Source: a virus. Taken from it: 64,000 bases of DNA. Below, piece by piece: positions 973 to 19,197 of the stretch; position 1 is the first letter of the stretch; every line of letters starts with the position of its first letter. Under the pieces are notes generated by a model that did no database searches, had not been told where the DNA came from, and saw nothing but the letters and a program-made list of their open reading frames with translations. The DNA lies in IMG/VR virus record IMGVR_UViG_3300007623_000006, positions 1 through 64,000 of that record. The stretch is one strand, 5' to 3'. Both the position numbers and the translations under genes were made by a program.

Positions 973-1974
973 ATGATTAAATTATCAGTAGCGTACACAA
1001 ATCAACTGTACCCTATTTTAAGAAAATACAAAGAGCATATCAATGATATCTACTTTAGCGATGGTGAGTTTGACTCAGCTAGAGGTAGTACATCATTCGA
1101 TGAAGGTGAACACTTATCTATTGAAGAGTTAAAAGAAATTAAATCGTTAGGTATAAAGCTTAACTATGTTCTTAACTCTCCTTACTTACCAAATAGGTTG
1201 TTAAACAAACACAAAGATATTACAGAACATTTACTTTCTCTTAAAGAAGAAGGATTAGTAGATATTATCACTGTTAATAATCTTATTTTAGCAAATAATA
1301 AGCATTTTATGAAAACTTTAAATGAGAACTTTGAAGTTAAAAATAGTGTTAATAATCATATTAATAGTGCTTTAAAAACTAAAGAAATTTGTGAAAGATT
1401 TCCTACAATTGATAATATTATTGTAGATAGAAGTGTTAACAGAAATCCGGAACTAATCAAAGAAATGGCAGACATTTGTCACTCATACGGCAAAAAAATA
1501 ACTGTTCTTATTAACGAAGGTTGTTTATATAACTGTATTTTTAAAAGAGATTGTGACTTAACATTTAGTAGTCAAGATAGTGTTGGTAGTGAAGATAATG
1601 GTATTTTCAACTGTTATAAAGAAAACTTCAAAAAACATAACGACAGATACCTTAAGTCTCCTTGGATGACTGCTGAGGGTGTTGAAATGTTAGAAGGTGT
1701 CGTTGACATATTTAAGATTAGTGGTAGATATGACCCACCAGATGAAATAGAAAAAAGAATTAGATATTACTTATACAATGACAGAGATGTTATGTTAAGA
1801 CATATACTTGATAAAGTTTTAAATGAAAAATATGATGAAATTTATAACTTAAGTATGATGGAATTATCAGTTTGGGGTATGTCAAGAACATTAACTAATT
1901 GTAAAAATGATTGTATGAATTGTGATAAGTGTGATGTGTTCTTAGAAAAATATAAGGAAGATAAAAATGACTGA
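973..1974 (+). CDS. Peptidase U32-family Fe-S protein (copy 1)
   Basis: LNYVLNS, LINEGCLYNC..C, DIFKISGR, C-terminal CKNDCMNCDKC. Confidence 0.75.
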   Translation: MIKLSVAYTNQLYPILRKYKEHINDIYFSDGEFDSARGSTSFDEGEHLSIEELKEIKSLGIKLNYVLNSPYLPNRLLNKHKDITEHLLSLKEEGLVDIITVNNLILANNKHFMKTLNENFEVKNSVNNHINSALKTKEICERFPTIDNIIVDRSVNRNPELIKEMADICHSYGKKITVLINEGCLYNCIFKRDCDLTFSSQDSVGSEDNGIFNCYKENFKKHNDRYLKSPWMTAEGVEMLEGVVDIFKISGRYDPPDEIEKRIRYYLYNDRDVMLRHILDKVLNEKYDEIYNLSMMELSVWGMSRTLTNCKNDCMNCDKCDVFLEKYKEDKND

Positions 1975-2668
1975 TTTAAACGAAAACCCGTTTTTAACTG
2001 CTATTATTAGACAAAAACAAGAAATCGAATTATTAAGAAATGAGTATGATGTGGCAGAAGATAGATTTGACCACATATTCACTATTAAAAAATTCAAATT
2101 AGATAATCAAATTCTTAGTTATATGGCTATGCCATTTGACTATGAACCTGAACTTGAGAAAAAAGAAATTGAAGCTAATGAATTGGATATTGTTAAACTT
2201 GGATTAATTACTAATGAACAAGTATACATTCTTAATGACTTAGATGTACAAGACCCTGGTCAGACTGTTATGTACGATGAAGAAACAGGTGAAGTATGGG
2301 AAATCAGAATAAAAGTTGAGTGTTTAATAGATGGTTCATATTTTGATGAAAATAAAAAAACTTGGATTTTACCTAAAGGTACTAAAGAAGCTAAGTTTCA
2401 TATTTACCCAATAAAAAACCAAAAAGAGCATTTCGACTTTTCTGAGTTTCACGAGTTTTCAATCAAGTCTATGGAAAAAATGACTAACTACATGATGTTA
2501 AACGACGAAGAAGGTCAAATAAAACTATACTTAGAAAAAGAACCACAAGATATTAAAGCAAACATTATTCAAGATTATTGGGAGCAAGTAATTAGAGTTA
2601 AACTTATCACTAAAGAAGGTGCTAAGAAATGGTTAACTCACTACATTTGTTTTAAAACTAAGGATTGA
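1967..2668 (+). CDS. Hypothetical protein, U32 partner copy 1 (paralog of 3623..4294)
   Basis: Overlaps U32 stop; C-terminal FDFSEFHEFSIKSM..EQVIRVKL..WLTHYI matches the second copy. Confidence 0.7.
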   Translation: MTDLNENPFLTAIIRQKQEIELLRNEYDVAEDRFDHIFTIKKFKLDNQILSYMAMPFDYEPELEKKEIEANELDIVKLGLITNEQVYILNDLDVQDPGQTVMYDEETGEVWEIRIKVECLIDGSYFDENKKTWILPKGTKEAKFHIYPIKNQKEHFDFSEFHEFSIKSMEKMTNYMMLNDEEGQIKLYLEKEPQDIKANIIQDYWEQVIRVKLITKEGAKKWLTHYICFKTKD

Positions 2669-2669
2669 T

Positions 2670-3626
2670 ATGAAATTATCAATTCCTTATGTTAGAGGTA
2701 TATCTAAAATAATTAAAGAATATAAAAATAACATTTATGATGTTTATTTTACAGATGATGTACTTCAATCTGCTAGACCCAGAACTACACATAACACTGA
2801 ATATATGAACTTATATAAAGAAATGGAAGAAATAAGAGTACAAGGTGTTAAAAGAACTTTTCTTCTTAACTCTATAATGATTAATGACCCATCACTAAAA
2901 GATTTAAGAAGTGACCCAGTTAGAAAAACAGTTAATCATTTAGCAAGAATTAAGGATAAATATGATATAATAACTGTAAACAACTTAATGTATCTGTACG
3001 ACCCTGATTTTATAGAAGTTACTCAAGGTAAAAAATTAAAAAATTCAGTTAATAATAAAATTGACAGTTTATATAAACTGGAAGAATGTTTTAAAATTAC
3101 CGATTGGGATGCTATTAATATAGATAGAAGAATCAACAGAAACAATAAACTTATTAATCAAATGTGCAAAGCCGTTAGAGATAAGGGTGCAGTTTCATAT
3201 GTATTAGTAAATGAAGGTTGTCATTGGGACTGTATATTTAAAGAATATTGTGATATTTCTATGACAGACCGTAACCAAATGACATCATTTAGTTGTTTAG
3301 AACACTATAATATAGGTAAACCTGAAAGTTACCTTAAGACTCCATTATTATTTCATGATAATGTTCAACATATAGATGCAGATGTATTTAAAATAAGTGG
3401 TAGATTCAATCCTGTCGATATTATAGAAAAAAGAATAAGACATTACTTGTATGGTGAAAATATTACTTTAGGTGAATTAATTGATAAACCTTTTGAAGAA
3501 GGTGACCCAGTTGAGCATATGGACTATAAAACATTAAATAAATATAGTATGACAGAATACTTATACGATTGTAAAAATAACTGTTTAAATTGTAGTAAGT
3601 GTGACAATATAAGGAATATTTTATGA
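2670..3626 (+). CDS. Peptidase U32-family Fe-S protein (copy 2)
   Basis: Collinear with copy 1: KNSVNN, IDRRINRN, LVNEGCHWDC..C, DVFKISGR, CKNNCLNCSKC. Confidence 0.75.
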   Translation: MKLSIPYVRGISKIIKEYKNNIYDVYFTDDVLQSARPRTTHNTEYMNLYKEMEEIRVQGVKRTFLLNSIMINDPSLKDLRSDPVRKTVNHLARIKDKYDIITVNNLMYLYDPDFIEVTQGKKLKNSVNNKIDSLYKLEECFKITDWDAINIDRRINRNNKLINQMCKAVRDKGAVSYVLVNEGCHWDCIFKEYCDISMTDRNQMTSFSCLEHYNIGKPESYLKTPLLFHDNVQHIDADVFKISGRFNPVDIIEKRIRHYLYGENITLGELIDKPFEEGDPVEHMDYKTLNKYSMTEYLYDCKNNCLNCSKCDNIRNIL

Positions 3627-4294
3627 TACCATTAACTAGAAAATTTTATAACTCTATAGTTTATCACAGGAAAGCAATTAACAGGTCAATGCCTATACTA
3701 ACTAGTGATTTTAATACTATCTCATTTATATACCACAAAGCGTCTGGTGTTGTTGAAAGTTTATCTTCAACACCACTATCACTAAGTGCAGATAATCAAT
3801 TTTTATATGAAGCCGTTAATCTTACAGAATTTACACCAGAAACAAAAGAACTAATAAGAAACTACAAACATACATTTGGTAAGAGTCAACTTATATGGGA
3901 CAGTGAAAAGAAAGAGTTTGATGTGTTAACATTAAACTACAATGTAAGAAAGTATACAAGATTTATAGAAGAAATTAATTTGTATGATGTAGACTATGAT
4001 AATGAATTTATTATAGATTTTAGTGTTACTAATCTTAAAGGAGAGGAAATTGATTTATCAAATTTTAGTGAAGTTTCACTAAAAAATATGGGTGATAAAG
4101 ATAAAAAGAATGATATGTCAATAAATAACATAAGCGGAAAGGAAACAATCCAGCTACCAAAAGAAAATGACCAATGGTTTAGAGTAACTATAAATGACTT
4201 TAACGAGGAAAATGTAGTTAGAGTAAAAATTAAACATATTGAACATCAAACTTTATGGCTTACGGCCTTTATAGCTCTTAGAGCAAACAAATAA
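3623..4294 (+). CDS. Hypothetical protein, U32 partner copy 2
   Basis: ATGA overlap with U32 copy 2; IDLSNFSEVSLKNM..ENVVRVKI..WLTAFI. Confidence 0.7.
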   Translation: MIPLTRKFYNSIVYHRKAINRSMPILTSDFNTISFIYHKASGVVESLSSTPLSLSADNQFLYEAVNLTEFTPETKELIRNYKHTFGKSQLIWDSEKKEFDVLTLNYNVRKYTRFIEEINLYDVDYDNEFIIDFSVTNLKGEEIDLSNFSEVSLKNMGDKDKKNDMSINNISGKETIQLPKENDQWFRVTINDFNEENVVRVKIKHIEHQTLWLTAFIALRANK

Positions 4295-4307
4295 CGAAAG
4301 GAATTAT

Positions 4308-5471
4308 ATGGTTTTTGATATTAATGTTACAAGTAGATGTAATCTTGCTTGTACTTATTGTTCAGAAGGTAATGAGTGTGGGTTGAGTTCAATTCAATCT
4401 GCTAACACGCAAGTCGATGTATTTGACTTATATAAATTTATAGACAAGTTTCCAGAGGAAGAAACATTTGAATTATTCTTCTGGGGTGGTGAACCAATGC
4501 TAAATTGGGCTTACTGTAAAGAGGTAATTGACCATTATATAGATGATAAAAGATTTGGTTTTTATTTTTATACTAACGGTATGTACATAGATAGATACTG
4601 GGATGATATTTTAGAATTACACAAAAAAACAAAATACCAAAATCATGGTGGAAAAGGTAGATTACACTTCCAAATTTCTTACGATGGTGACCCTATTAAT
4701 GAGATTGAAAGAATTGATAAAAAAGGTAAAACTGTTTCTTGGAAAGTTAAAGAAAACTATGAAAAATTAAGACAGGAAGGTATATCAACTTCTCTTAAGT
4801 CTGTTATTGTTGCAAGAAGTTTTAAACACATTTATGAAGCATATTTAGATGTATCTGCTATCAACTTTAACTATTCTCCTACACCAGATTCATTTTCACA
4901 AATGACAGAAGAAGAGTTTCAACCATTCTTAGATGAATTAGGTGAAGGACTAAAAAATATTGCTAAACACATATATGACAATAATTTACCACCTGAAACA
5001 TTTGCTTGGTTCCAAGATAGTAAAAAGTTATGTGGTGCAGGTAAAGGGTACTACTCAATCGACCTTAATGGAGACTTAAGTCCTTGTCATGGTTGTATGT
5101 ATAGAGACACCGATACACATAAAGTTGGTAATGTAAATGAAATCCTTGCAGATGATATTAATATTAAAGACTACTTAGAAACTGTTAGTCAAGCATACAA
5201 AGAAGGACACCATAAAACAAATGAGTGTTTATCGTGTGACGCACTTTATTGTTTAAAATGTCCAGTTGGGTGTTTTGACAAGTCTGACAAAGGACAAAGT
5301 GATAAGGCAAATGACGAATTGAGATTTACTGACCCTGAATATTTTGAAAAATGGTCAGATGCAAATGCAAATTGGCAAATGTGTAAAGTGTTTAAGCTTT
5401 CAGACAAATACCATAAAGCACTTAGATATGCACTTAACTTAAGAGCACAAAAATTACAAAATGTTAAATAA
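4308..5471 (+). CDS. Radical SAM/SPASM-domain maturase 1
   Basis: CNLACTYC, FWGGEP, YTNG, ISYDG; SPASM-like CGAG..SPCHGC..CLSC..C..CPVGC..C. Confidence 0.92.
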   Translation: MVFDINVTSRCNLACTYCSEGNECGLSSIQSANTQVDVFDLYKFIDKFPEEETFELFFWGGEPMLNWAYCKEVIDHYIDDKRFGFYFYTNGMYIDRYWDDILELHKKTKYQNHGGKGRLHFQISYDGDPINEIERIDKKGKTVSWKVKENYEKLRQEGISTSLKSVIVARSFKHIYEAYLDVSAINFNYSPTPDSFSQMTEEEFQPFLDELGEGLKNIAKHIYDNNLPPETFAWFQDSKKLCGAGKGYYSIDLNGDLSPCHGCMYRDTDTHKVGNVNEILADDINIKDYLETVSQAYKEGHHKTNECLSCDALYCLKCPVGCFDKSDKGQSDKANDELRFTDPEYFEKWSDANANWQMCKVFKLSDKYHKALRYALNLRAQKLQNVK

Positions 5472-5491
5472 GACTTTTTTGGTCTTATTTA
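5465..5491 (+). other. Hairpin across the rSAM1 stop codon, followed by AATAAATA late-promoter-like octamer (5492-5499)
   Basis: TAAATAAGAC-N7-GTCTTATTTA perfect 10-bp stem. Confidence 0.5.
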
Positions 5492-5519
5492 AATAAATAA
5501 AAATAAATTATAAAGGATT

Positions 5520-6614
5520 TTGATGTTTACATTAGAATTACTAGTTACAGAAAAGTGTAACTTAGGTTGTCCTTATTGTTATGTTGCTAATAAAAACAAG
5601 TTTATGACAAAAGAGACATTTGACAAAAAGTTTGACCAATTACATGACCTTGTTAGAAGAACAGGTGAGAAAGATTATCATATTTCTTTCTTTGGTGGTG
5701 AACCATTATTAAATTGGGAATTGATAGAGCACGCTGTTCCTAAATTTAAAGCAGACCCTCTTTGTAAAGGTATCGTTATTATTTCTAACTTTACACTAAT
5801 TGACCAAGAGAAATCTGACTTTTTATTAAAGAACGGTGTAGGTGTATCATGGTCATTTGATGGTATTACATCAAACGAAACTAGACCTCTTATTAAAACT
5901 CCCGAAAATGATGGTTACTACGGTACACCTGAAGGTATCCTTAAAATGTACGAAGATAAAAAGGACTTAATCCTACGGCATGTACAAGGTTGTAAATTTA
6001 TGGTATGGCCTGGTAATAGTCAATTAATGACAGAAAACTTAGAATTCTTTGCTGATTGGGGTATACCTTTCCCTGACTATTCACTTGTAAGAGATGATGT
6101 ATGGTCAATTGAGGATATTAAAAACTTTAAAACTGACTTAAGAGCACTAGGTGATAGAACTATTAAGTACCTTATGGAAGAAGAAAAAATGGTTATGCCT
6201 GGTTTCTTTAGTTTATCTATTATGGATTCTATGTTAGGACTATCTAAAGGTAAAAGACCATTTGGATGTTTTGCAGGTTGTAGAGGTGTTGCTATTATGC
6301 CTGATGGTGAGGTATACCCTTGTGCTAGATTTGGGTCTAAAAGAATTATGGAAATTGATGAAAATTATGATTTCTCATATTACCAAAGTAAGTTTAAACC
6401 TGAGAATTATGATAAATGTAAAACTTGTGACATTGAAAAAATATGTAATGCTGGTTGTACATACAGTCAGGTAAGAAACGACAACAAACCGTTAGACAGT
6501 ATTTGTGAATTATTTCACATTATTACAGAAGAAAGTTACAGAGTACTAGACGAGTGTAAAGACAGTCCGTTATTACAACAGTATTTCTTAAACGCATTTA
6601 ACAATATAGGATAA
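5520..6614 (+). CDS. Radical SAM/SPASM-domain maturase 2
   Basis: CNLGCPYC, FFGGEP, WSFDG; SPASM CFAG..YPC..CKTC....CNAGC..C. Confidence 0.93.
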   Translation: MMFTLELLVTEKCNLGCPYCYVANKNKFMTKETFDKKFDQLHDLVRRTGEKDYHISFFGGEPLLNWELIEHAVPKFKADPLCKGIVIISNFTLIDQEKSDFLLKNGVGVSWSFDGITSNETRPLIKTPENDGYYGTPEGILKMYEDKKDLILRHVQGCKFMVWPGNSQLMTENLEFFADWGIPFPDYSLVRDDVWSIEDIKNFKTDLRALGDRTIKYLMEEEKMVMPGFFSLSIMDSMLGLSKGKRPFGCFAGCRGVAIMPDGEVYPCARFGSKRIMEIDENYDFSYYQSKFKPENYDKCKTCDIEKICNAGCTYSQVRNDNKPLDSICELFHIITEESYRVLDECKDSPLLQQYFLNAFNNIG

Positions 6615-6618
6615 TATT

Positions 6619-6828
6619 ATGGCTGGAATGACTATTAAAGAATTAGAAGACGCATTAGAAACTGCTAAAGTACAAATGGCTAAAGTTGACAGTGAATATG
6701 TTAATTATGACCACAGAGGTCACTTGTTTGATTATGATATAGATTATGTTAAATTTATTAATAATATAGCATATGTTATTAAAGAAGGTACTAGAAAAGG
6801 TCTAGACTTTAAAAATCAAGGAAGATAA
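6619..6828 (+). CDS. Small hypothetical protein within the rSAM cluster
   Basis: AGGA SD, tightly packed between two rSAM genes. Confidence 0.6.
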   Translation: MAGMTIKELEDALETAKVQMAKVDSEYVNYDHRGHLFDYDIDYVKFINNIAYVIKEGTRKGLDFKNQGR

Positions 6829-7671
6829 ATGAAACAAGAGGAAAACAACAAACCTACCGAAAATGGTAATGTTAACATTTTGTATTTTACTACAAAATGT
6901 AACCTCGATTGTACATACTGCTATGAAGATTTAGGTAATAAAGAGAAAAAATCTACTTCTTTAGAAGACTTAAAAAAACAAGTCGATGAGATTATAGCAA
7001 CTGAACCAATTGATACTCAGACATTATTTGTATTATTTGGTGGTGAACCTACTTTAGAATGGGATAATGTTAAAGGTGTAGTAGATTATGCTTACAGTAA
7101 AAAACAAAATGTATTCTTTAATTTAGAAACAAATGGAATAAAATTTTTAGACCAAACTTTTCTAGATGATTACTTAGATTTTTTTAAAAATAAACCACAT
7201 TCACTTGATATATCATTTGATGGTATAGGCAATCACTTAAGACAAGACCATAAAGGTAATGATAGCACTCAACAACTATTAGATGTGCTACATATTTTTA
7301 AAGAATTACCTTGGGTTAATTGGAGAATACGATACACTATAACTAAAGCAAACTTTAAAGATTTTGCAAGTGATGTAGTTAAACTAGGTAAATCATTTGG
7401 ACCTAGAAGAATAATTACAAGTGAAGATAGTGACTCATTTACCCAAGCTGATTATTATCATATAAATAAACAAAAGACTGTTTTAAAACATCTTTGGGAT
7501 ACAGATAAGTTAGATATACCAATATGTAATATTTTCTGTGATAACTGTACAGGGTGTGAAAGCTCTAAAGCAAACAAAAGATATTACAAAGATGGTCAAA
7601 TGGTTGACAGTATTGAAGTCAAAGATAATCAAGGTGAGTTCTCACACTTTAAAACAAAAAAAGGCAAATAA
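6829..7671 (+). CDS. Radical SAM protein 3 with a short Cys-rich C-terminus
   Basis: CNLDCTYC, LFGGEP, ETNG, ISFDG; C-terminal CNIFCDNCTGC instead of a full SPASM. Confidence 0.9.
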   Translation: MKQEENNKPTENGNVNILYFTTKCNLDCTYCYEDLGNKEKKSTSLEDLKKQVDEIIATEPIDTQTLFVLFGGEPTLEWDNVKGVVDYAYSKKQNVFFNLETNGIKFLDQTFLDDYLDFFKNKPHSLDISFDGIGNHLRQDHKGNDSTQQLLDVLHIFKELPWVNWRIRYTITKANFKDFASDVVKLGKSFGPRRIITSEDSDSFTQADYYHINKQKTVLKHLWDTDKLDIPICNIFCDNCTGCESSKANKRYYKDGQMVDSIEVKDNQGEFSHFKTKKGK

Positions 7672-8174
7672 TGAAAGAAAGCGAATACAAAGAACTTATA
7701 CAAGAAAAGTTTTATGATGTAATGTCTAAATCTGCAATTGTACAAGAAAAAAATCCTGAAATAGGTGAAGTTTTACAAGATATGACTGAGTTATTAGTGT
7801 TACTTTTTGAAAGACATTCAGAAGCATTTAAACACTTTGACAATAATATTATGGGGTTATCTGGTGATGTAGCACAATTACACCAAGAAGTACAAAATGC
7901 TAGTTCATGCTGTGGTACAGGTACTTGTGGTACAGGTTCAACTCAACCAGCAACACTTCAAGGAATGGAACAAGAAATGTCTGGAGAAATGTTTGACCTT
8001 GCTGCTGACATTATGGGTGGTGATAATGATAATAATGGATATGTTCAATATATAAATAATAAAAGAAAAGAAGTTAAAGAGTATGTTACTAAAGGTGAAG
8101 AAGTTGAGAATGAAACTCAATTAGATGCTGATATAGCAACACTAGGTAACTTTATAGATAAAAAATTGAGGTAG
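7671..8174 (+). CDS. Hypothetical helical protein with central SSCCGTGTCGTGS motif
   Basis: Translationally coupled to rSAM3. Confidence 0.7.
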   Translation: MKESEYKELIQEKFYDVMSKSAIVQEKNPEIGEVLQDMTELLVLLFERHSEAFKHFDNNIMGLSGDVAQLHQEVQNASSCCGTGTCGTGSTQPATLQGMEQEMSGEMFDLAADIMGGDNDNNGYVQYINNKRKEVKEYVTKGEEVENETQLDADIATLGNFIDKKLR

Positions 8175-8177
8175 ACA

Positions 8178-8762
8178 ATGATTTCATTAGACACAATACT
8201 TTACAAAATAAACCTTATGGTTAAAAAAGAAAAATACGATGATGCAATATTAGTATTAGAAAATGCAATTGAAGATGACTTAGTTAATACAGAAGATGAA
8301 AAAACACTTAGTATTAAATATTTACAATTGTTACTTTTAAGAAAAACACCTGAAGATATCCAAAACTTTAGAGAATGGTGTGAAAAGTTAAAAAAAGAAG
8401 AATTTGACCCTAAAATGTCAGAATATGTTTATAACTTTGTTTCTTATTTACTAACTTATGGTGAATTAACTTATACAGACGAAGAATATAAATTGTATAA
8501 GGAAATTATTAGTTGGAACAAAAAACACTTCTTTTATATTACTCTTGTATTAAATGAAATTTCATTTTTACATGAAAATCCAGAAGAAAGATTTGAAGCA
8601 CAGGTAACTGCAATGGAAGAGTTTTTTGAAGGATTAACTGACGAAGAAGAAGAATTAGCAAAAGAGTACTTTGGTGAGATTAAAGCTAAAATTCAATCTA
8701 AACCTGAATTAAATTCAGATGATACAAGAATGTTAGAATTATTTTACATTCTAGATATATAG
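8178..8762 (+). CDS. Hypothetical alpha-helical (TPR-like) protein
   Basis: KYDDAILVLENAI TPR-like helix; GAGG SD. Confidence 0.55.
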   Translation: MISLDTILYKINLMVKKEKYDDAILVLENAIEDDLVNTEDEKTLSIKYLQLLLLRKTPEDIQNFREWCEKLKKEEFDPKMSEYVYNFVSYLLTYGELTYTDEEYKLYKEIISWNKKHFFYITLVLNEISFLHENPEERFEAQVTAMEEFFEGLTDEEEELAKEYFGEIKAKIQSKPELNSDDTRMLELFYILDI

Positions 8763-8771
8763 GAAATTATT

Positions 8772-9917
8772 ATGGCAGTAAGTAAAGCATTATTAGACAA
8801 ATATATTAAATTATTCAAACTGCCTGCTGGGTCTACTTGGGATGATGTTCTAGCTGAAAGACAAAGAAGAAAAGATAATAGTAATCCTTGTTACACAAAT
8901 GCTACAAACTTTGACTACTCTGCTCAATTAACAGATGAACAAATCATTGAAAATATGAGAGATTCAATTGAAAGAGAAAAGAAAAGAAGAGCAGTCCAAT
9001 GGGATTACGAAGCATACTCTAGTTGGGAAGAAATCAAAGAATTAGCATACCCCGATAAACAAGAAACTGATATGACTGAAGTAGACAAAAAATATGTCGT
9101 TAGGTCAGAAGCAATTAGAGAGTTAATATCTAGAATTAATGCACTTGGGTCGTTTTCAGTACCTAATCCTGAGTCATACGAACCAGGACAAGTAATTAGT
9201 AAAGATAAAGTTAAAGTACTTGGTAAGACAATTAATGACAACGAAATAGCATGTCTTTGTGATTGTAACTACTGTACTTGTGATTGTAACTACTGTACTT
9301 GTGATTGTAACTACTGTACTTGTGATTGTAACTACCACGATAATTTAGTTAAGTCTTCATATTTTGGAACTACAACGGATTATGGAGATTCAGGTACTAA
9401 AAATAGAGGTAAAACAAGTGTAGATGATAAAACAGTTTGGGATAAAAGTGTAAACACAACAGATGGCACTATTTGGGCAATTGATTGGTGTAACTGTGAT
9501 TGTAACTACTGTACTTGTAATTGTAACTATTGTACTTGTGATTGTAACTACTGTACTTGTGATTGTAATTATTGTACTTGTGATTGTAACTACTGTACTT
9601 GTGATTGTAACTACTGTACTTGTGATTGTAACTATAAAAACGCTATGTATAGATATTGGTTCAGAGCAAACCCATACGACAGTACAAAATATGATGGTAC
9701 ACAATATGCGTATGGTTCAAGAAGTTCTAGCGGTAGTGTAAGTTCATACTGTACTTGTGATTGTAACTATTGTACTTGTGATTGTAACTATTGTACTTGT
9801 AACTGTAACTATTGTACTTGTAACTGTAACTACTGTACTTGTGACTGTAACTATTGTACTTGTGACTGTAACCAGTGTGTTGTATTCTACTACGGTAGAT
9901 GTAGAGCTTGGGGTTAA
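8772..9917 (+). CDS. Cys-rich repeat protein, putative radical SAM modification target
   Basis: ~160-aa Cys-poor N-terminus, then 17 heptads C-x-C-[DN]-C-N-[YQ] in blocks of 4, 7 and 6; AGGA SD. Confidence 0.85.
   Translation: MAVSKALLDKYIKLFKLPAGSTWDDVLAERQRRKDNSNPCYTNATNFDYSAQLTDEQIIENMRDSIEREKKRRAVQWDYEAYSSWEEIKELAYPDKQETDMTEVDKKYVVRSEAIRELISRINALGSFSVPNPESYEPGQVISKDKVKVLGKTINDNEIACLCDCNYCTCDCNYCTCDCNYCTCDCNYHDNLVKSSYFGTTTDYGDSGTKNRGKTSVDDKTVWDKSVNTTDGTIWAIDWCNCDCNYCTCNCNYCTCDCNYCTCDCNYCTCDCNYCTCDCNYCTCDCNYKNAMYRYWFRANPYDSTKYDGTQYAYGSRSSSGSVSSYCTCDCNYCTCDCNYCTCNCNYCTCNCNYCTCDCNYCTCDCNQCVVFYYGRCRAWG
9252..9335 (+). repeat. 21-nt coding tandem repeat block 1 (4 units)
   Basis: TGTACTTGTGATTGTAACTAC consensus unit. 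Confidence 0.95.
9489..9635 (+). repeat. 21-nt coding tandem repeat block 2 (7 units)
   Basis: Same unit with synonymous and D/N variation. Confidence 0.95.
9750..9875 (+). repeat. 21-nt coding tandem repeat block 3 (6 units)
   Basis: Same unit; last one ends in Gln. Confidence 0.95.
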
Positions 9918-9933
9918 TTTAAAGGAGATTTAA

Positions 9934-10926
9934 GTGAATATAATTTATTATAATTTTGATTATGAATATTTCACAAATATTTTATCGTTAAAAATGGAAG
10001 TGAGAGACGGAGGTCTTTCACTATATGAAAGTTTATTTAGTAGACTTTATGGTATTGGTGCTATAGATAGAACTAAAAAGTTACCTAAGTCTATTAATAC
10101 AGTATCTAAATTCCCTATTCCTAGTGTAATAACAGATTTACCTAGTTATAGTGAAATAGTAGAAGAAAATGCACAGAAAATTAAAAGTTCTTTTGTAGAT
10201 GATTTACCTGCAATAATGTATTACGACGGTTCAATTGATGCAACAGTTGCTTTATTAGCTATGGTTGATGTTGATGTAAAACCTGTTTTAAATGTGTCTG
10301 AGAGCGTCTACAACACACAAAAAGATTTAATTAGTAGTCTGGGTTTAGAAACTGTGATAAACGAAAAGAGAGAGTACGGAGAAGACATTAAACACTATAA
10401 TATTATTAATTATGCTTTAGGTAAAGTTATAAATGATTGTGATTATGCGTATTCTGTATCAAATGAAGATAGTTATTTAAATTTGGGTGTAGATGAATTT
10501 AAAACATACTTAGAGTCTTTATTAGTTAGCGATACATTAATTAATACATTAGATGAGCAATTTAACGCAATTATAAGCATATCACCGGTAGATTTAAATA
10601 CAGTATATAGTGTAATAAAATGGACATCTTTTAATTTTGCGTACCAAGGTCTAACTTTTGATAAATGGTACGACAATAAAACTGTATGGAGAGCAAATCA
10701 AACAGTACATAATTTTTATAATACTGATAAGTTTCAAAGATATAGTTTAAATAATATTAATAAAGAAATTAGCGTAGATAATTTTAAGATTGATGCTCTA
10801 GACTATATAAAATCTAAAACTGATAAGTTTGCAGGAAAAGGATTAGTGTACATAGATGATACTAAAACTGCTTTAAGATTTATTAGTGATGAATATAAAC
10901 CATTTAGAGACATTGGATTTGATTAA
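9934..10926 (+). CDS. Hypothetical protein, possible degenerate adenine-nucleotide alpha-hydrolase (PP-loop) fold
   Basis: GGAG SD with GTG start; IMYYDGSIDATVALL resembles the SGGxDST PP-loop. Confidence 0.4.
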   Translation: MNIIYYNFDYEYFTNILSLKMEVRDGGLSLYESLFSRLYGIGAIDRTKKLPKSINTVSKFPIPSVITDLPSYSEIVEENAQKIKSSFVDDLPAIMYYDGSIDATVALLAMVDVDVKPVLNVSESVYNTQKDLISSLGLETVINEKREYGEDIKHYNIINYALGKVINDCDYAYSVSNEDSYLNLGVDEFKTYLESLLVSDTLINTLDEQFNAIISISPVDLNTVYSVIKWTSFNFAYQGLTFDKWYDNKTVWRANQTVHNFYNTDKFQRYSLNNINKEISVDNFKIDALDYIKSKTDKFAGKGLVYIDDTKTALRFISDEYKPFRDIGFD

Positions 10927-11165
10927 TCCTTTGTCTTTATAATGTGATTATCTTTTATTTTAAATCCTAAATTATTTAAAAATTGTTTTTTTGCTAGCAT
11001 ATCACCAACACTCACAGGTACAAAATAAATATCACCATTATCAATCCCAAAGTCTTTAACTTTAACTACCTTTTCAATTAATAATATATATGTGTCTATT
11101 TTAGATGACGAGTCTATAGAAAACCCATCATCATTTATTTCACTTTTATATGTATCTTTAAGCAT
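10923..11165 (-). CDS. Hypothetical protein
   Basis: Overlaps uvsX stop, same operon. Confidence 0.6.
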   Translation of the reverse strand: MLKDTYKSEINDDGFSIDSSSKIDTYILLIEKVVKVKDFGIDNGDIYFVPVSVGDMLAKKQFLNNLGFKIKDNHIIKTKD

Positions 11166-12198
11166 CAGCTTGTTCTATATCATCCCATGAAAAATCTTCA
11201 TCGGCAATTTCTGAATGTTCAAATGTGTACTTTTTCTCAACATACCATTTAAAATCTGTATTAGAAATAATAGGACCCCAAAATTCTTTAGTGTAAATAT
11301 CCTTTTCTCTCCACTTTTTATCGTTTTCAACTGATGGTCTACTATACCAACCCATAGATGGCTTTTCTACATATCCACCTTCTAAAGCATCTTCTAACAT
11401 ACCATAGAATGGAGAGATACCACCATCATAATTAATTAAATACTTAAGTTTAGAGTTTTCTTTAGCAAATCTACTCTTTTTAGTACTAGCAGTTACAATT
11501 GCTCCAGTAATATCACCTGAACTTTCTTTATTTTTTGCTTTACTTGAACCTAATACAATACTAGATGAAGCAAAATATATACCTCTACCACCACCGATAG
11601 CAAGTGGGTCATATTGATTCATTGAATCATAAACTTGATTAATTACAAATACTGTGAAACCTAAACCTGTTAATAATCTAGCAAACGAATTCTTTTTCTT
11701 TGAAATTGTCATATCTGATACATCTTTACCAGATGTAGCATCGTCTACTGTTTTACTAGTAACTAAACCACCCCAAGAGTCAATAACAAGTAATATTTTA
11801 CTTCTTTCTTCTTTTTCAACTTCACTTGCAATTTGCATAACTGTTTGTTGTAATGACTCAATTTGATTGTCTTGTATAACTAACATATTTTTTTCATCAA
11901 TACCAACATTTTCAGCAAATGCAGGGTCGTATGCAAACTCACTATCTAAATAGATAACTTCTAAACCTTTCTTTTGTGCGTTTTTAGCAACTTTCATACC
12001 AATAAACGACTTACCTAATGATGATGGTGCAGCTATTTGATTTACTTTTCCAATTGGAATACCACCATCTAATTTTCCACTGAATAATACATTAAGTGTT
12101 AAACAACCAGTGTTAATAAAATCTTTTGGTGTCGCTTCTTCTTTAAATATATACTCTGCTATTTTTTTATTTTTAGAGATTTTGTCTAAAATACCCAT
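11158..12198 (-). CDS. uvsX: RecA-like recombinase UvsX
   Basis: TGCLTLNVLFSGKLDGG, APSSLGKS Walker A, YLDSE, VIDSWG, FVINQ, GGGRG. Confidence 0.92.
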   Translation of the reverse strand: MGILDKISKNKKIAEYIFKEEATPKDFINTGCLTLNVLFSGKLDGGIPIGKVNQIAAPSSLGKSFIGMKVAKNAQKKGLEVIYLDSEFAYDPAFAENVGIDEKNMLVIQDNQIESLQQTVMQIASEVEKEERSKILLVIDSWGGLVTSKTVDDATSGKDVSDMTISKKKNSFARLLTGLGFTVFVINQVYDSMNQYDPLAIGGGRGIYFASSSIVLGSSKAKNKESSGDITGAIVTASTKKSRFAKENSKLKYLINYDGGISPFYGMLEDALEGGYVEKPSMGWYSRPSVENDKKWREKDIYTKEFWGPIISNTDFKWYVEKKYTFEHSEIADEDFSWDDIEQADA

Positions 12199-12849: not shown

Positions 12850-13641
12850 TTATTGACATTTTTCAATATACCATCCAATATATTTTATATTACCGCTTTT
12901 TTGATGTTTTATAATATCGTTTGGTCTACATTTGCTATACAATCTTTTATCTTTTCTTGCTTTTAATAATCCATTAGGTAAATTATTATCTTTTATAAAA
13001 TCACTTAACTTATAACCATTAATAATATTATATATTATATTATCATCTTTGTTTTTTATACAGTATGAATATAACCATTTAGTGGAATCAATACCAATTT
13101 TAGAATCTACACAGTAATAACCATTTGTTTTTTTATCTCTTTTATTATATATAGGCATACCATAATTATCAGCAGATTTTTTAATATTAGTGTAACATAT
13201 ACCAATATCTTTTGATTTCTTTACATAATCACCATTACATTCAGCAATAATATTATGATTATTGTCATATATTGTTATTGTCCTTGCTCTACCATTATCA
13301 GAACCGAAATTTTTTGTAGGTGTAAAATCGTGTATCTTAGATATAGTATCACCTCCATCACCACCAATAGTCATATTATACCCATTATTAAATGTATTAT
13401 AATATTTTATCCAATACTCTTCCCTAATATCAATATTTTCATCACTTATATTGTCTTCTAATATACTAGTTTCAAAATTATCAATTCCATATTTTCTTAA
13501 TGCTCGGTGAAATACATTATTAGACCCATTATTACTACTTCTTATGTGTTGATTTAATCTATAATCTACTTTATTTTTTGTTTTTCCTATATAAGATTTT
13601 CCATTTATTTTATTAGTATGTTTATATATTTTATTTCTCAT
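12850..13641 (-). mobile_element. Free-standing GIY-YIG (Seg-like) homing endonuclease
   Basis: IYKHTNKINGKSYIGKT..RLNQH..KYGIDNF..E..I..YNTFNNGYN. Confidence 0.88.
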
Positions 13642-15465: not shown

Positions 15466-16773
15466 TTAACTTATACTGATAGTACCATCACCATTATCTA
15501 CAACAGAACCAACAATTGTTGAATCTTGTCTACCATATTTTTCATTGTCAAGTGTATACATAGTATCTATTAAGTTTGAGAATGTTGTGCTTTCTGTACC
15601 TAAATATTTCCATCCATTAACAAAAATGTCATATTTAATACCAATTGAGAAATCTAATACAGGGAAATCTAAATTAATATCAAAATTAATATCTTCAATA
15701 ATAACATTTCTAGTATCAAATACTCCTTTAGTCATATCTAGTTCTAATTCAGAAACTTCGTCATATGTAGCACCTACTGGTCTTCTGTTCATTAATAACC
15801 CTCTTGGTGAATAATGTAATTTGTTAACATCTGTTTTAAATCTTTGCATTTTACTGTACTTAACCACTTCATAACCATTTGTATCTTTCATTACAAGTTT
15901 ACCAACAACATAAACTTTTTTAGATTTAGTTAATAAAGCAACATAATTATCACCAGCAATAGCAGTATTAATAATAGTATCTGAATCGTATTTATCACCT
16001 GCATTTGGTAAAAATTTATTTAATAATACCCATTGATGTGTCGCATAACCTATATTATCAGTAAATTGATGATTTAAGTTTGAACCACATGCCCATACAT
16101 TGTTATTTTTTCTAATTATAGTGAAATCATTCCCACATGCTACTTCATATACATTAGCACCGTCGTATGAATTTCCATCAAAATCAACCCCTACTAAAGA
16201 AGCTTCAACTGAATATATTCCTCTATTCATTGATGATGTAAAGTTTGTATTAGATAATTCAGAAACAGGAGTATATATATTTCTATCAGCATAATCACTT
16301 AAATCAGTGAATACTACTTTTTTTGGTACATAAACGATGTCATTTACACCACTTACTCTAGAATCGTTCAATACTCCACATTGACCATAAGAGTTATCAC
16401 CCCATAACCATACATCCCCTTTACTATCTAAAGCTACATTGTGGTTTAATCCAGCATCAACTGAAACTATATTAACATTCTCAGGGAATGTAACATATGC
16501 AGGGCTGTATCCGTTTTCAATCGAGTGTGTATTCGACCAACCTAATTGACCTTTAGAGTTGTCACCAAATGTCATAACTCTATTATCCATTGTTAAAACG
16601 ATAGTATGGTTTAAACCTGTTGCCACTTGTCTAACACTATCCATAATCTTTTTTTGTTCTTTAGAAAAACTAGTAGTGTCAGTACTAATACCTAACTGAC
16701 CATATGTATTACTTCCAACTCCATATAAACCACTGTTTTCATCTATGAACATAGCGTGATATGATAAAATCAT
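15466..16773 (-). CDS. RCC1/BLIP-II repeat beta-propeller protein
   Basis: Repeats GSNTYGQLG, VATGLNHT, GDNSKGQLG, AGLNHN, WGDNSYGQCG, VACGNDFT. Confidence 0.85.
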   Translation of the reverse strand: MILSYHAMFIDENSGLYGVGSNTYGQLGISTDTTSFSKEQKKIMDSVRQVATGLNHTIVLTMDNRVMTFGDNSKGQLGWSNTHSIENGYSPAYVTFPENVNIVSVDAGLNHNVALDSKGDVWLWGDNSYGQCGVLNDSRVSGVNDIVYVPKKVVFTDLSDYADRNIYTPVSELSNTNFTSSMNRGIYSVEASLVGVDFDGNSYDGANVYEVACGNDFTIIRKNNNVWACGSNLNHQFTDNIGYATHQWVLLNKFLPNAGDKYDSDTIINTAIAGDNYVALLTKSKKVYVVGKLVMKDTNGYEVVKYSKMQRFKTDVNKLHYSPRGLLMNRRPVGATYDEVSELELDMTKGVFDTRNVIIEDINFDINLDFPVLDFSIGIKYDIFVNGWKYLGTESTTFSNLIDTMYTLDNEKYGRQDSTIVGSVVDNGDGTISIS

Positions 16774-16795: not shown

Positions 16796-18322
16796 CTATA
16801 ATTTACAAATATTTATATATATTGTATTTATGTCATACACAAATAAACCTAAATCATCTACTGTTAGATGATACTCTCTTGGTAATGTTTCAATAAGTTC
16901 GCTTCTTTTTATATACATAGGACTAAGGTATGTTAAACCTGTATCCTTAGAACTTAATACTATATTTTTTGTTATATCAATTTCATTTACACTTCTTTCT
17001 AAATAATCTGTAAATGTTTTTGAAAAATAAGGACCATCTATACTATTTTTTAATTTACCAGTATTCCAAGTACTTGCCCTTGCTGTCATAATAGCACTTT
17101 TAATAGGTGAATTTAAAATAAATCTTTGATTATTAACAGTCCTATAACTATTAGTTCTAGGTCTCATTGTAATATTATCAATTGCTGTAACTTTATCACT
17201 TGAAACTGTTAATATATTACTAGGACCACCTTTACCCATATAATAATAAACAATACCTTTCATATTATTGTCTTTTACTGTAGTTTGGTGAGCACTATCC
17301 ATATGACTTAAGTCTTCTGAATTTAAATAGTTAATTAATCTTAAATATGTGTTTGTAGAAGATGACATAATCCAAATATGTCTATATTTGTAATCACAAT
17401 ATATTTTAGTATTTAAATCAACTGAAATAGATGATGTAAAGTCAGTGTACCCAATTTCAGACAAAACTCTACCGTCACTTGAAGATAAAATTCTTATATT
17501 ATTAGGTGTAACATTAACAAAATCTGTTATACTAGTACCATCTGTTACTTCTGCTATACTTAAATTAGTAACATCATCTGGTAAAATACCTTCAGTTACA
17601 TTGTATTGAGTACCATCAAGATTAACAGTGATAAACTGATTTAAAGCAGTGTCACTTTTAAACCATATCATAACTTGATTTGAAACTTTTTGTACTTTTT
17701 TTATACTTAAATTTGGATGTGTAATTGTTATTTTTTGTGATTGTCTAGATGTTAGTCTAAAAAATGTTATAGTTTCCCCTTGTTTATAAGCAAATACGGC
17801 ATTACTCGACTCATTGTCTACAAATGTTTCACCCCAACCAATCATAGTTGGACTGTTCATAACTTCTACTGTATTATCAGGATGTTTTTTTATGTCTAGT
17901 ACAGATTCTCTTGGAGTATTATATAAATCTCCTATGTATCTATAAACATATACATTATTACCATCATCATCGATATGTGAAAGTTTTTTCTGTTCTATAA
18001 CATTAGCAATTAATCCGTTGTAATATTCAGGCTTACCAGGAAATACTCTTAAAGGTTCATACTCGTGTCCCATAAAATCATGTTGTCTACCCATATAAAG
18101 AGATTTTATCATTGGTGTATAATTTATTTTAATAGGACTTTCAAAAAAACTATTTGGTCTATTCATAGTCGAAACTCTAAGGTTACCTGCACCTACTGTT
18201 TGCGAGTCATAATTTAATAAATCTACGCTGTTAGTATCACCACTAGGGTCTAGAAATATTTGTTTTGAAAATCTGTTTATTTCTCCTACTGCAGGTACAT
18301 TAAAATCGTTTATTGTTAACAT
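16796..18322 (-). CDS. Hypothetical beta-rich protein (possible virion component)
   Basis: 508-aa ORF between two RCC1 genes. Confidence 0.6.
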   Translation of the reverse strand: MLTINDFNVPAVGEINRFSKQIFLDPSGDTNSVDLLNYDSQTVGAGNLRVSTMNRPNSFFESPIKINYTPMIKSLYMGRQHDFMGHEYEPLRVFPGKPEYYNGLIANVIEQKKLSHIDDDGNNVYVYRYIGDLYNTPRESVLDIKKHPDNTVEVMNSPTMIGWGETFVDNESSNAVFAYKQGETITFFRLTSRQSQKITITHPNLSIKKVQKVSNQVMIWFKSDTALNQFITVNLDGTQYNVTEGILPDDVTNLSIAEVTDGTSITDFVNVTPNNIRILSSSDGRVLSEIGYTDFTSSISVDLNTKIYCDYKYRHIWIMSSSTNTYLRLINYLNSEDLSHMDSAHQTTVKDNNMKGIVYYYMGKGGPSNILTVSSDKVTAIDNITMRPRTNSYRTVNNQRFILNSPIKSAIMTARASTWNTGKLKNSIDGPYFSKTFTDYLERSVNEIDITKNIVLSSKDTGLTYLSPMYIKRSELIETLPREYHLTVDDLGLFVYDINTIYINICKL

Positions 18323-19197
18323 TTGTTTCCATCTCCTTCAACCCATAATGGTTTTTCATATATTGAATTTCCCATTACTACAATAAGTTTCTTTTGGTCT
18401 TTACTAATACTTATATCAGTTATACCTTTATCAAGTCTAACACCTGCACTTGTCTGACAGTAACCTTTAAACTGTGGTTGTTGACCATACATAATAACAC
18501 TAATTTCACCTAAGTTTTCAGATTTAGTACTTTCTGTAATCATAAAAAGATTGTCTCTTGTTGGTATTATTTTTTTAATATCTTCACCATATACTTCAAT
18601 AGAACCAAAGTGAGTATCACCATCTTCCATTTTTGTTGCTGGCATATTGTATTTTGCCCAATCACCTTGTATATAAAGTTTACTTGTACCTTCTAAAATG
18701 TTTTTTAACATATATACCATTACAGTTTCACCCATTGCTACATATGTAACTTTATTGTATGGTGTTATATAATCTCTAATTGTGTTAGGGTATTTAACAA
18801 ATTCAGTTTTCGATGAGTTGTACATTTTACCTAAAAACATAGCAACACCATTTTTAAAATAAAGTGTTGACACCGGACCACAAACAAAATCTTCAACATC
18901 ATTATCTATAAGTGTAGCACCTTCTAAATAAGGACCTCTTGATGGACCAATTTGACCGTATTCATTATTACCAAATCCATATAAATTTCCACTTTCGTCT
19001 AAATAACAAGTATGAAAATATCCATAATCGTATCTAACAGCAGCTTCAGCTACAATAATTTTTTTAGTTTCAGGGATATACATATCAGTATTTTTAAACC
19101 CTAGTCCGTGATGAACATTTGAACCATATATGTATAATTCATTCCAAGGACTTAGATAATGTGTCATTTGATATATTTCATTATCGTTGTATTTCAT
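18316..19197 (-). CDS. RCC1-repeat protein
   Basis: GSNVHHGLG, GYFHTCYLDESGNLYGFGNNEYGQIG, FVCG. Confidence 0.8.
   Translation of the reverse strand: MKYNDNEIYQMTHYLSPWNELYIYGSNVHHGLGFKNTDMYIPETKKIIVAEAAVRYDYGYFHTCYLDESGNLYGFGNNEYGQIGPSRGPYLEGATLIDNDVEDFVCGPVSTLYFKNGVAMFLGKMYNSSKTEFVKYPNTIRDYITPYNKVTYVAMGETVMVYMLKNILEGTSKLYIQGDWAKYNMPATKMEDGDTHFGSIEVYGEDIKKIIPTRDNLFMITESTKSENLGEISVIMYGQQPQFKGYCQTSAGVRLDKGITDISISKDQKKLIVVMGNSIYEKPLWVEGDGNKC

Follow-up and report, generated by a model that had tools for sequence, protein, structure and literature searches.

The sequence analyzed here, referred to as the window, is a 64,000-nucleotide stretch of DNA from an uncultured T4-like phage (positions 1 to 64,000 of IMG/VR record IMGVR_UViG_3300007623_000006, itself 111 kb long). 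Near its left end, three genes for radical-SAM (rSAM) enzymes, here called R1, R2 and R3, are followed by two genes without recognizable family membership and then by a gene for a 381-residue protein dominated by cysteine-rich heptad repeats. The genes and their features are as follows.

4308..5471, plus strand: R1, 387 aa, radical SAM domain plus a variant SPASM domain (PF04055 and PF13186), no RRE domain, CX3CX2C motif at residue 11.
5520..6614, plus strand: R2, 364 aa, radical SAM domain plus a canonical 7-Cys SPASM domain (PF04055 and PF13186; CX9-15GX4C and CX2CX5CX3C motifs), no RRE domain.
6829..7671, plus strand: R3, 280 aa, radical SAM core (PF04055, E 4e-17) with a short C-terminal CX3CX2CX2C, probably one auxiliary cluster.
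7671..8174, plus strand: acidic protein of 167 aa with a CCGTGTCGTG motif, no Pfam or NCBIfam family and no homologue in related loci; its membership in the system is uncertain.
8178..8762, plus strand: protein of 194 aa directly upstream of the repeat gene, no family in Pfam, NCBIfam or PHROG searches and no homologue in related loci; its membership in the system is likewise uncertain.
8772..9917, plus strand: Cys-heptad repeat protein, 381 aa, 54 Cys, the proposed substrate and a probable virion or fibre-type protein.
8772..9185, plus strand: N-terminal domain of the repeat protein, residues 1–138, specific to this subfamily, with the motif IEREKKRRAV and helix 112–125, conserved in the closest relatives (P0002–P0006).
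9186..9251, plus strand: pre-repeat helix, residues 139–160 (GQVISKDKVKVLGKTINDNEIA), which could nucleate a coiled coil or serve as an enzyme-docking element.
9252..9335, plus strand: repeat block 1, 4 heptads, residues 161–188.
9336..9488, plus strand: spacer 1, residues 189–239, rich in G, S, T, Y, D and K and conserved in the subfamily (YFG..NYG...TIW).
9489..9635, plus strand: repeat block 2, 7 heptads, residues 240–288; the number of units varies among close relatives.
9636..9749, plus strand: spacer 2, residues 289–326, containing YAYGSR..G.V.SY.
9750..9875, plus strand: repeat block 3, 6 heptads, residues 327–368.
9876..9917, plus strand: C-terminal cap CVVFYYGRCRAWG and the stop codon, standing where most relatives carry the S74 tag SDxRLK.
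9934..10926, plus strand: protein of 330 aa directly downstream, preceded by a strong AAGGAG, with a predicted PP-loop or Asn-synthase-like fold (Atlas structure matches at TM 0.63–0.73 to Asn_synthase, QueC and NAD_synthase clusters); it is absent from 38 related records and is not part of the conserved core.

The initial annotation described 17 units of the form C-[TLN]-C-[DN]-C-N-[YQ] in blocks of 4, 7 and 6, about 54 cysteines, and the C-terminal sequence given above, and this observation is confirmed. The unit types are CTCDCNY (11 copies), CTCNCNY (3 copies) and one copy each of CLCDCNY, CNCDCNY and CTCDCNQ. Of the 54 cysteines (14.2% of residues), 51 are in the repeats and the others are C40, C369 and C377. 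The pattern is not a chance occurrence, as (C.C.C..)x2 is found nowhere else in any of the six frames of the window, and a reversed-pattern control gave 0 hits in 33 related records. Open reading frames in other frames over the repeats (9390–9704 on the minus strand, 9463–9741 on the plus strand, and similar) were considered and rejected as by-products of the repeat. The gene has an AGGA 8 nt before the ATG and lies 9 nt after the preceding gene. The T4 late-promoter motif TATAAATA gave 22 matches compared to 20 expected, with none in front of the cassette, and a scan for sigma-70 promoters and terminators was uninformative.

Two details of the initial annotation require correction or refinement. 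Synonymous codon variation between units had been taken to indicate selection on the peptide, but within this gene the variation is modest: all 51 repeat Cys codons are TGT and all 15 Thr codons are ACT, only the D, N and Y codons vary, and there are 10 distinct 21-mers among the 17 units, which constitutes weak evidence on its own. The strong evidence comes from other phages, where in 512 units from 94 distinct blocks TGT/TGC, ACT/ACA/ACC, AAT/AAC and TAT/TAC are all used freely while the residues stay fixed. The two N-terminal helices that had been proposed are also found in an AF2 model (residues 112–125 and 144–161), and the second matches a family-wide consensus, G..I.A..IN.LI..IN.AGAV followed by CLCNCNY, found in 118 relatives. 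Residues 139–163 fit this consensus at G, I, V/I, L, I-N and A, and the first unit is CLC.

The protein belongs to a large, unnamed phage family (PHROG 26958, E 3e-44) with 354 homologues and the consensus C-T-C-[ND]-C-N-Y. Over 639 units, positions 1, 3 and 5 are C in 100%, position 6 is N in 94% and position 7 is Y in 92%. About two thirds of the listed relatives run directly from the last repeat (...CNCNY-SDxRLK) into a Peptidase_S74 self-cleaving fibre chaperone; PF13884 was confirmed in the relatives P0015 and P0031. This tail is common in the family but not universal, and no PF13884 match was found in the window protein or anywhere in the 111-kb record. In L003 and L005, two of the related loci, the gene follows giant collagen-like ORFs. 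Gene 3-9 of Campylobacter phage IBB_35, the 534-aa relative, is listed among 38 virion proteins found by ESI-MS/MS (PMC3322345, supplement), although this is a single protein at 2.6% sequence coverage in a distant relative that shares mainly the repeats and the pre-repeat helix with the window protein. The family therefore looks like a virion or fibre protein and not a small RiPP precursor.

Other searches with the repeat protein returned little. Pfam and NCBIfam searches found no family (no model, Fe-S scaffold models included, at E ≤ 0.1), and a PDB sequence search gave no hit at E ≤ 1. The N-terminal region, searched as residues 1–160 against 1.84 billion representatives, hit only P0004 and a spurious 2,444-aa coiled-coil protein, and an hhalign comparison with the N-domains of the S74-type relatives was weak (probability 53%, E 1.4e-4). 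An AF2 model built with 6 sequences had a mean pLDDT of 41, with the repeats at 21–39, and gave no usable fold. A complex prediction with three copies of residues 105–290 scored 0.00, which is not evidence either way. For the S74-type relative P0015, modeled with 44 sequences, AF2 was confident for three N-terminal helices and for the S74 domain (pLDDT 91–97 for the latter), whereas the repeats again scored 33–40; Foldseek against the PDB found no match at E ≤ 0.001.

All three enzymes have the PapB ranthipeptide maturase as their best NCBIfam match, followed by the SCIFF, QhpD and nif11 maturases; they belong to the SPASM/twitch peptide-maturase branch. The PapB model matched R1 at E 6.7e-23, R2 at E 8e-38 and R3 at E 2e-23, but the scores (81.4, 130.4 and 83.1 bits) are far below the curated PapB cut-off of 340 bits (NF047865), as they are for every curated family. 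The enzymes are not equivalogs of PapB, thioether formation is inferred from similarity alone, and anSME-like oxidation is also compatible with their RRE-less architecture. None has an RRE domain that could read a leader: the CX3CX2C motif lies at residues 11, 13 and 24 of the three enzymes, and the alignments start at residue 100 of CteB and at profile positions 79–101 of RRE-bearing maturase models.

The relationship between the enzymes and the repeat gene was examined in several datasets. The R1, R2 and R3 orthologues score 215–497 bits to their own type and 52 or less to the others, and they lie beside the Cys gene in three gene orders. PF04055 is present in 33 of 33 further viral records that carry the repeat and in 35 of 38 overall; one related record (L002) has no rSAM gene in the 43.8 kb covered. 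Of 26 metagenome loci of 5 kb or more, 25 have at least one orthologue next to the repeat gene and about 19 have all three. Searches of 50,697 cultured phage records by tblastn and megablast with the target and the cluster found no match, probably because of low-complexity masking and divergence, and succeeded only through the homologue P0033 and the rSAM enzymes. In these searches the Cys protein, R1 and R2 each match 15 records, all of Campylobacter Firehammervirus phages, and R3 matches the same phages plus two weaker faecal-phage fragments. In phage CP220 the 534-aa relative is YP_009169314, and the neighboring R1-type gene is YP_009169318. In the Campylobacter phages, however, R2 and R3 are tens of kb from the Cys gene, and related records carry 7–16 rSAM genes, indicating that some rSAM enzymes have other jobs. 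The record of the window itself holds exactly three rSAM genes and exactly one Cys-heptad gene.

The interpretation offered in the initial annotation, a leader-like N-terminus followed by three separable cores modified by rSAM enzymes, or alternatively a metallothionein-like or Fe-S storage protein, is partly supported. The link to rSAM enzymes holds, as the three upstream genes are of the thioether-maturase type, their orthologues accompany Cys-heptad genes in nearly every related locus, and the heptad contains C-x-x-D/N twice (C1 to D/N4 and C3 to N6), a spacing known from rSAM thioether substrates (PMC13692751). This Cys donor and acceptor arrangement is a sequence feature only. The RiPP-style picture is not supported given the size of the protein, the absence of an RRE, the absence of a recognized protease or exporter family in Pfam, PHROG and NCBIfam searches of ORFs 973–10926 (several of which have no assigned family), the fibre-type relatives, and the virion detection of one relative. 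The metallothionein-like or Fe-S storage alternative is not excluded, but it explains neither the S74 tails nor the virion detection.

These results lead us to propose, with moderate confidence, that the repeat gene encodes a structural, probably fibre-type and probably virion-borne protein whose 17 heptads are the substrate of R1, R2 and R3. The analysis itself establishes that the repeat family exists and is under selection on the peptide, that the three enzyme orthogroups co-occur with the repeat gene, usually as direct neighbors, that the enzymes are RRE-less members of the maturase branch, that most relatives end in the S74 chaperone, and that one relative was detected in virions. The remainder is inference, including any enzymatic modification: after translation the three enzymes would act on the repeat cysteines, most likely forming Cys-S to carbon thioether links (ranthionine or sactionine-type) within each unit, for example C1 to D/N4 and C3 to N6, with C5 going to Y7 or to the next unit. 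One enzyme may serve each of the three Cys positions, the result would be a covalently stapled, reduction-proof rod, and the conserved helix before the repeats would set the register or dock the enzymes. In this phage the protein is an unusual long form, with three blocks, its own N-terminal domain and a short two-Cys cap in place of the S74 tail.

In its most far-reaching form, which we regard as possible but unlikely, the phage would build a new protein material, a virion fibre whose shaft is a ladder of enzyme-made thioether staples, three per seven residues, with each of three dedicated RRE-less enzymes installing one of the three links. This would be the first radical-SAM cross-linked structural protein of any virus. 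Radical-SAM thioether stapling is known for small RiPP peptides and, since 2026, for one archaeal protein, CrpA; here the same type of enzyme is tied by co-occurrence to a widespread family of phage proteins that look like particle fibres. Literature searches on the repeat motif, on SPASM enzymes and cysteine-rich proteins of phages, on phage-encoded RiPPs and on CXXX repeats found nothing on this system, and we found no paper describing it in viruses. If the chemistry is confirmed, it would show that viruses use RiPP-type enzymes to harden their own particles, it would explain the long-noted puzzle of the many radical-SAM genes in Campylobacter phages (Timms 2010, PMC2853527), or at least three of them, and it would provide leader-independent Cys-stapling enzymes and a compact seven-residue substrate tag for protein engineering. 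The presence of all four genes in cultured Campylobacter phages makes the question directly testable.

Among the alternatives, all of which we consider unlikely, the one that survives best is a metal-binding or disulfide-laddered fibre shaft that the rSAM enzymes do not touch, with the neighboring enzymes serving another purpose. In a beta-strand the alternating Cys of C-x-C-x-C face one side, and in a trimer they could line the axis and bind Fe or Zn, as the HxH motifs of T4 gp37 bind iron, or they could form inter-chain disulfides. The S74 tails of relatives point to a trimeric fibre, the failure of AF2 to fold the repeats as a monomer is expected if folding needs partners or cofactors, and related phages carry many rSAM enzymes of unknown role. 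However, this scenario does not explain why three specific rSAM orthogroups follow the repeat gene through three different gene orders and across very divergent phages, or why strong matches to all four genes fall in the same Campylobacter phages among the cultured records. The near-invariant N6 and Y7 and the D/N at position 4 are also not metal ligands of choice.

It is slightly less likely that the enzymes modify the repeats by a different chemistry, such as anSME-like oxidation of Cys to formylglycine, epimerization, C-C or C-O aromatic links to Tyr7, or methylation. R1 aligns end to end with the anaerobic sulfatase maturase model (residues 7–334 against 7–336 of 363, E 4.7e-11), anSMEs are not known to carry an RRE and have the same size and layout, cyclophane and darobactin-type maturases are among the hits, and Tyr is well conserved at position 7. 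On the other hand, the PapB, SCIFF and QhpD thioether families score higher for all three enzymes, the heptad lacks the C/S-x-P/A-x-R sulfatase motif, and three Cys per unit fits Cys-donor chemistry best. Still more doubtful is an Fe-S cluster or iron-and-sulfur scaffold or store that supplies the phage's many cluster-hungry rSAM enzymes during infection and is not their substrate. The 51 closely spaced Cys, the association with enzymes that each need 1–3 [4Fe-4S] clusters and the link of CrpA expression to iron and sulfur supply in M. voltae are consistent with it, but the S74 tails, the position behind collagen-like fibre genes and the virion detection do not fit a cytoplasmic cofactor store. 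The least likely is a true RiPP precursor with a 160-residue leader and three blocks cut out as secreted or host-directed peptides, for which the three spaced blocks, the adjacent maturase-type enzymes and an Atlas neighbor cluster with PF27846 (the rSAM-target Cxxx-repeat family) in 24% of members (score 0.83, a lead only) could be cited, but which we rejected on the grounds given above and because relatives have one block fused to an S74 domain and the number of blocks and units varies freely among close relatives.

Comparisons with known systems place these findings in context. Metallothioneins share the high density of C-x-C motifs but are small and lack aromatic residues, and we rejected this identity because the protein has 381 aa, Tyr in 16 of 17 units, no Pfam metallothionein match and fibre-type relatives. 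In Peptidase_S74 (PF13884) intramolecular-chaperone tail fibres and spikes, such as the K1F endosialidase and the T5 L-shaped fibre, the region before the chaperone is normally a trimeric shaft, which is where the repeat sits in most relatives; no S74 fibre is known to have a Cys-heptad shaft or rSAM partners. The CXXX-repeat rSAM target system (TIGR04115 maturase, PF27846 target) is a bioinformatically defined pair of a SPASM rSAM and a tandem Cys-repeat target. TIGR04115 hits R2 (E 4e-18) and R1 (E 2e-8), but far below the cut-off (66 against 350 bits), and its repeat register is C-x-x-x and not C-x-C-x-C-x-x. QhpD, an rSAM/SPASM enzyme, makes Cys-to-Asp/Glu thioethers inside QhpC, a subunit of quinohemoprotein amine dehydrogenase (cited as QHNDH in PMC13692751), and its model (TIGR03906) hits R2 at E 2e-22, also far below the cut-off; QhpC is a small enzyme subunit with three links, neither a repeat protein nor viral. 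The SCIFF maturase CteB (PDB 5WGG/5WHY) is the closest solved structure to R2 (5WGG, E 1.4e-12) and has the same rSAM plus SPASM core, but the phage enzyme lacks its N-terminal RRE, and the SCIFF substrate is a peptide of about 45 residues with six Cys.

PapB of the PapB/PapA (freyrasin) system makes Cys-to-Asp beta-carbon thioethers and accepts C-Xn-D with n = 0–6 (PMC9413430), and the heptad offers C-x-x-D and C-D; PapA, however, is a short leader-dependent peptide with C-X3-D. The closest precedent is CrpC/CrpA of Methanococcus voltae (PMC13692751, 2026). TIGR04463, the CrpC-type model, is not among the 22 families matching R1 at E ≤ 1e-6, nor among the 25 best-matching families for R2 and R3. 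CrpA has a 17-residue repeat, a single enzyme with an RRE and a 47-residue leader-like N-terminus, and it is archaeal and cellular, whereas the phage system has a 7-residue repeat with three Cys, three RRE-less enzymes and fibre-type relatives, and its chemistry remains a hypothesis. In both cases a SPASM radical-SAM enzyme is encoded next to a large protein made of tandem Cys-rich repeats, with C-x-x-D/Q motifs in CrpA and C-x-x-D/N here, and in M. voltae CrpC installs ranthionine links on the 28.8-kDa CrpA at C-x-x-D-type motifs, the product being a modified protein and not a peptide.

The ORF at 8772-9917 (+) encodes a protein of 381 aa with 17 in-register heptads arranged in three blocks, at residues 161-188 (4 units), 240-288 (7 units) and 327-368 (6 units). 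The unit types are CTCDCNY (11 copies), CTCNCNY (3 copies) and three single variants. The protein contains 54 Cys, and its C-terminus is CVVFYYGRCRAWG. The pattern occurs nowhere else in the six reading frames of the window, and a reversed-pattern control found nothing in 33 related records. The repeat protein described in the initial annotation is therefore real. Codon variation within the gene is small, as all repeat Cys are encoded by TGT and all Thr by ACT. However, across 94 distinct repeat blocks from 72 loci every position uses its synonymous codons freely while the residues stay fixed, indicating that selection acts on the peptide. The gene has a Shine-Dalgarno-like AGGA and lies 9 nt after the previous gene and 16 nt before the next.

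The window is part of a 111-kb IMG/VR virus record, about 64% complete, from a T4-like phage with 29% G+C. The repeat gene is the only Cys-heptad gene in the record. Three radical-SAM (rSAM) genes, the only ones in the record, lie upstream of it on the same strand. The genes discussed here, together with the other features noted in the window, are as follows.
1-939 (+), open at the 5' end: ORF with a Fibrinogen_C globular domain (E 3.9e-8), which may be a receptor-binding fibre tip just upstream of the cluster
973-4294 (+): four co-oriented ORFs upstream of R1 with no Pfam match at E <= 0.01
4308-5471 (+): R1, rSAM plus a variant SPASM domain
5520-6614 (+): R2, rSAM plus a canonical seven-Cys SPASM domain
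6829-7671 (+): R3, an rSAM core plus a short CX3CX2CX2C tail
7671-8174 (+): acidic 167-aa protein with a CCGTGTCGTG motif, between R3 and the repeat gene
8178-8762 (+): 194-aa protein, between R3 and the repeat gene
8772-9917 (+): Cys-heptad repeat protein
9934-10926 (+): 330-aa protein directly downstream, with a strong AAGGAG
11158-12198 (-): UvsX
12850-13641 (-): GIY-YIG domain protein (E 2e-8) near uvsX, probably a homing endonuclease
15466-16773 (-) and 18316-19197 (-): two proteins matching PHROGs labelled as RCC1-like "regulator of chromosome condensation" repeats, probably beta-propeller structural or adhesin proteins

A U32-family reading proposed in a separate initial annotation of this window was not reproduced for the ORFs at 973-4294. 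No family was found for the proteins at 7671-8174 and 8178-8762 in Pfam or NCBIfam searches. The predicted structure of the 330-aa protein resembles the PP-loop enzymes Asn-synthase, QueC and NAD-synthase (TM 0.63-0.73). Because the repeats of the window protein are unusually Asp-rich at position 4 (14 of 17 units, compared with 37% in the family), a carboxylate-activating enzyme acting on Asp4 is conceivable, although this notion is unsupported.

All three rSAM enzymes have the PapB ranthipeptide maturase model as their best NCBIfam hit, followed by the SCIFF, QhpD, nif11 and other peptide-maturase models, in each case far below the curated cut-offs. The closest solved structure to R2 is CteB. 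The CX3CX2C motifs of the three enzymes start at residues 11-24, and alignments begin about 80-100 residues into RRE-bearing maturases. The enzymes therefore have no leader-recognition domain.

A search of 5.8 billion proteins with the repeat protein gave 354 hits. Five clusters (P0002-P0006, 50-62% identity) share the whole architecture of the window protein with different unit numbers, whereas all the others share the repeat and a conserved helix just before it. Over 639 units, positions 1, 3 and 5 are Cys in 100%, position 2 is T in 78%, position 4 is N in 56% and D in 37%, position 6 is N in 94%, and position 7 is Y in 92%. The pre-repeat consensus is G..I.A..IN.LI..IN.AGAV-CLCNCNY, and the window protein fits it. 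Units of eight residues also occur, for example in the related viral locus L002, where the gene at 10262-11020 has about 17 eight-residue variants (x-CTCDCNY). Two otherwise matching relatives of 534 and 499 aa (P0008 and P0011) differ by five heptads, and unit number appears to change by slippage. The family has no Pfam or NCBIfam model, and its only library match is PHROG 26958, of unknown function.

About two thirds of the 120 listed hits continue from the last unit straight into SDxRLK, the start of the Peptidase_S74 intramolecular chaperone of tail fibres and spikes, which appears either as a full domain of about 80 residues or as a 20-residue tag. PF13884 was confirmed for the two relatives P0015 and P0031, and AF2 models that domain at pLDDT 91-97. 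In two further hits, P0010 and P0078, the Cys repeats are followed by a Hint-like domain instead of S74 (for P0078 Hint_2 scores E 5.7e-6, just under the cut-off), which would represent a second kind of self-processing C-terminus on the same repeat. In two related loci, L003 and L005, the Cys gene directly follows giant collagen-like GSAGSA ORFs of 1,535-2,007 aa (L003 3916-9939; L005 5298-9905).

Among cultured phages, the 534-aa relative P0033 is the protein of the Campylobacter Firehammervirus phages CP220, CPt10, CP21, IBB_35 and others, 15 records in all. In CP220 its 21-bp repeats are annotated only as "Repetitive region x", with six such units inside the gene (CP220 locus L059, 9877-10002). 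In two records, CP21 (CP21_105) and vB_CjeM_WX1, the protein is annotated as "putative N-acetylneuraminate pyruvate lyase"; no Pfam family matched P0033 at E <= 0.01. In IBB_35 it is gene 3-9 (60.3 kDa), and the published virion ESI-MS/MS table lists gene 3-9 among 38 particle proteins at 2.6% coverage (PMC3322345 supplement). This is the only experimental evidence on the family that we found, and it is thin.

The repeat gene and the rSAM genes occur together. In 11 of 16 viral loci found through the protein, rSAM orthologues lie within 10 kb. A DNA-pattern scan for two heptads found 39 viral stretches, and all 33 further records examined carry PF04055 genes, 3-16 each, clustered around the repeat gene. 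Most of these related records (G006-G038) carry 7-16 rSAM genes, far more than the three found here. Overall, 35 of 38 related records have PF04055 genes, and the three without are 13-33% fragments. L002 has no rSAM gene in 43.8 kb of sequence. Best-hit typing shows three clean orthogroups, with scores of 215-497 bits to their own type and 52 or less to the others. They occur in three gene orders: R1-R2-R3-Cys (as here), R2-R3-R1-Cys and Cys-R1-R2-R3. Of 26 metagenome loci of 5 kb or more, 25 have at least one orthologue and about 19 have all three. The apparent exceptions L003-L006 are cut at the contig end, and their near relatives L088, L110 and L082 have the enzymes about 3 kb downstream. 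Among 50,697 cultured phage records, R1 (E <= 1e-10) and R2 (E <= 1e-20) each match 15 records, all of the same Campylobacter phages that hold the Cys protein, while R3 matches those phages plus two weaker faecal-phage fragments. The other genes of the window cluster (973-4294, 7671-8762 and 9934-10926) have no homologue in any related locus or record, the last being absent from 38 related records. The conserved core therefore consists of three enzymes plus the repeat protein.

The analysis establishes a repeat family under selection on the peptide, its strict association with three SPASM/twitch-type rSAM orthogroups, fibre-type tails in most members, and the detection of one member in virions. 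That the enzymes modify the repeat Cys, and by what chemistry, is inferred from sequence and gene context alone. The most likely chemistry is thioether formation, because the best-matching families (PapB, SCIFF/CteB, QhpD) all make Cys-S to carbon links. Each heptad contains C1-x-x-D/N4 and C3-x-x-N6, which is the spacing seen in CrpA (C-x-x-D/Q; PMC13692751) and lies within the tolerance of PapB (C-Xn-D, n = 0-6; PMC9413430). Three Cys per unit and three conserved enzymes suggest one enzyme per Cys position, although this is a guess. With no RRE present, recognition may rest on the repeat itself or on the conserved pre-repeat helix. The tolerance of 7- and 8-residue units suggests that each unit is self-contained. 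AF2 could not fold the repeats, either as a monomer with 6 sequences or with 44 sequences, which fits a fold that depends on partners, cofactors or cross-links but proves nothing. The interpretation in the initial annotation, which pictured a leader-like N-terminus and separable cores acted on by rSAM enzymes or alternatively a metallothionein-like or Fe-S storage protein, is only partly supported.

Other scenarios are possible but less likely. A metal- or disulfide-stabilised trimeric shaft that the enzymes do not touch is the strongest of them, though doubtful, and other rSAM chemistry on the same substrate, such as anSME-like oxidation or Tyr cross-links, is slightly less likely again. An Fe-S scaffold for the enzymes is improbable, and a true multi-core RiPP precursor is the least probable of the four.

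Our search of the literature library available to us found nothing on this system in viruses. The 2010 and 2012 Campylobacter phage papers noted the many rSAM genes but did not connect them to this protein. Within the family, the window protein is a rare long form with three blocks, no S74 tail and its own N-domain, which was found in only one other cluster among 1.84 billion representatives, and it occurs in a minimal setting of exactly three enzymes and one proposed substrate. The closest known system is CrpC/CrpA (2026), in which a SPASM rSAM staples a 28.8-kDa Cys-repeat protein. The enzymes of the phage system do not meet any curated family cut-off, and the system differs from CrpC/CrpA in repeat length, in the number of enzymes, in the lack of an RRE, and in its viral, fibre-type context.
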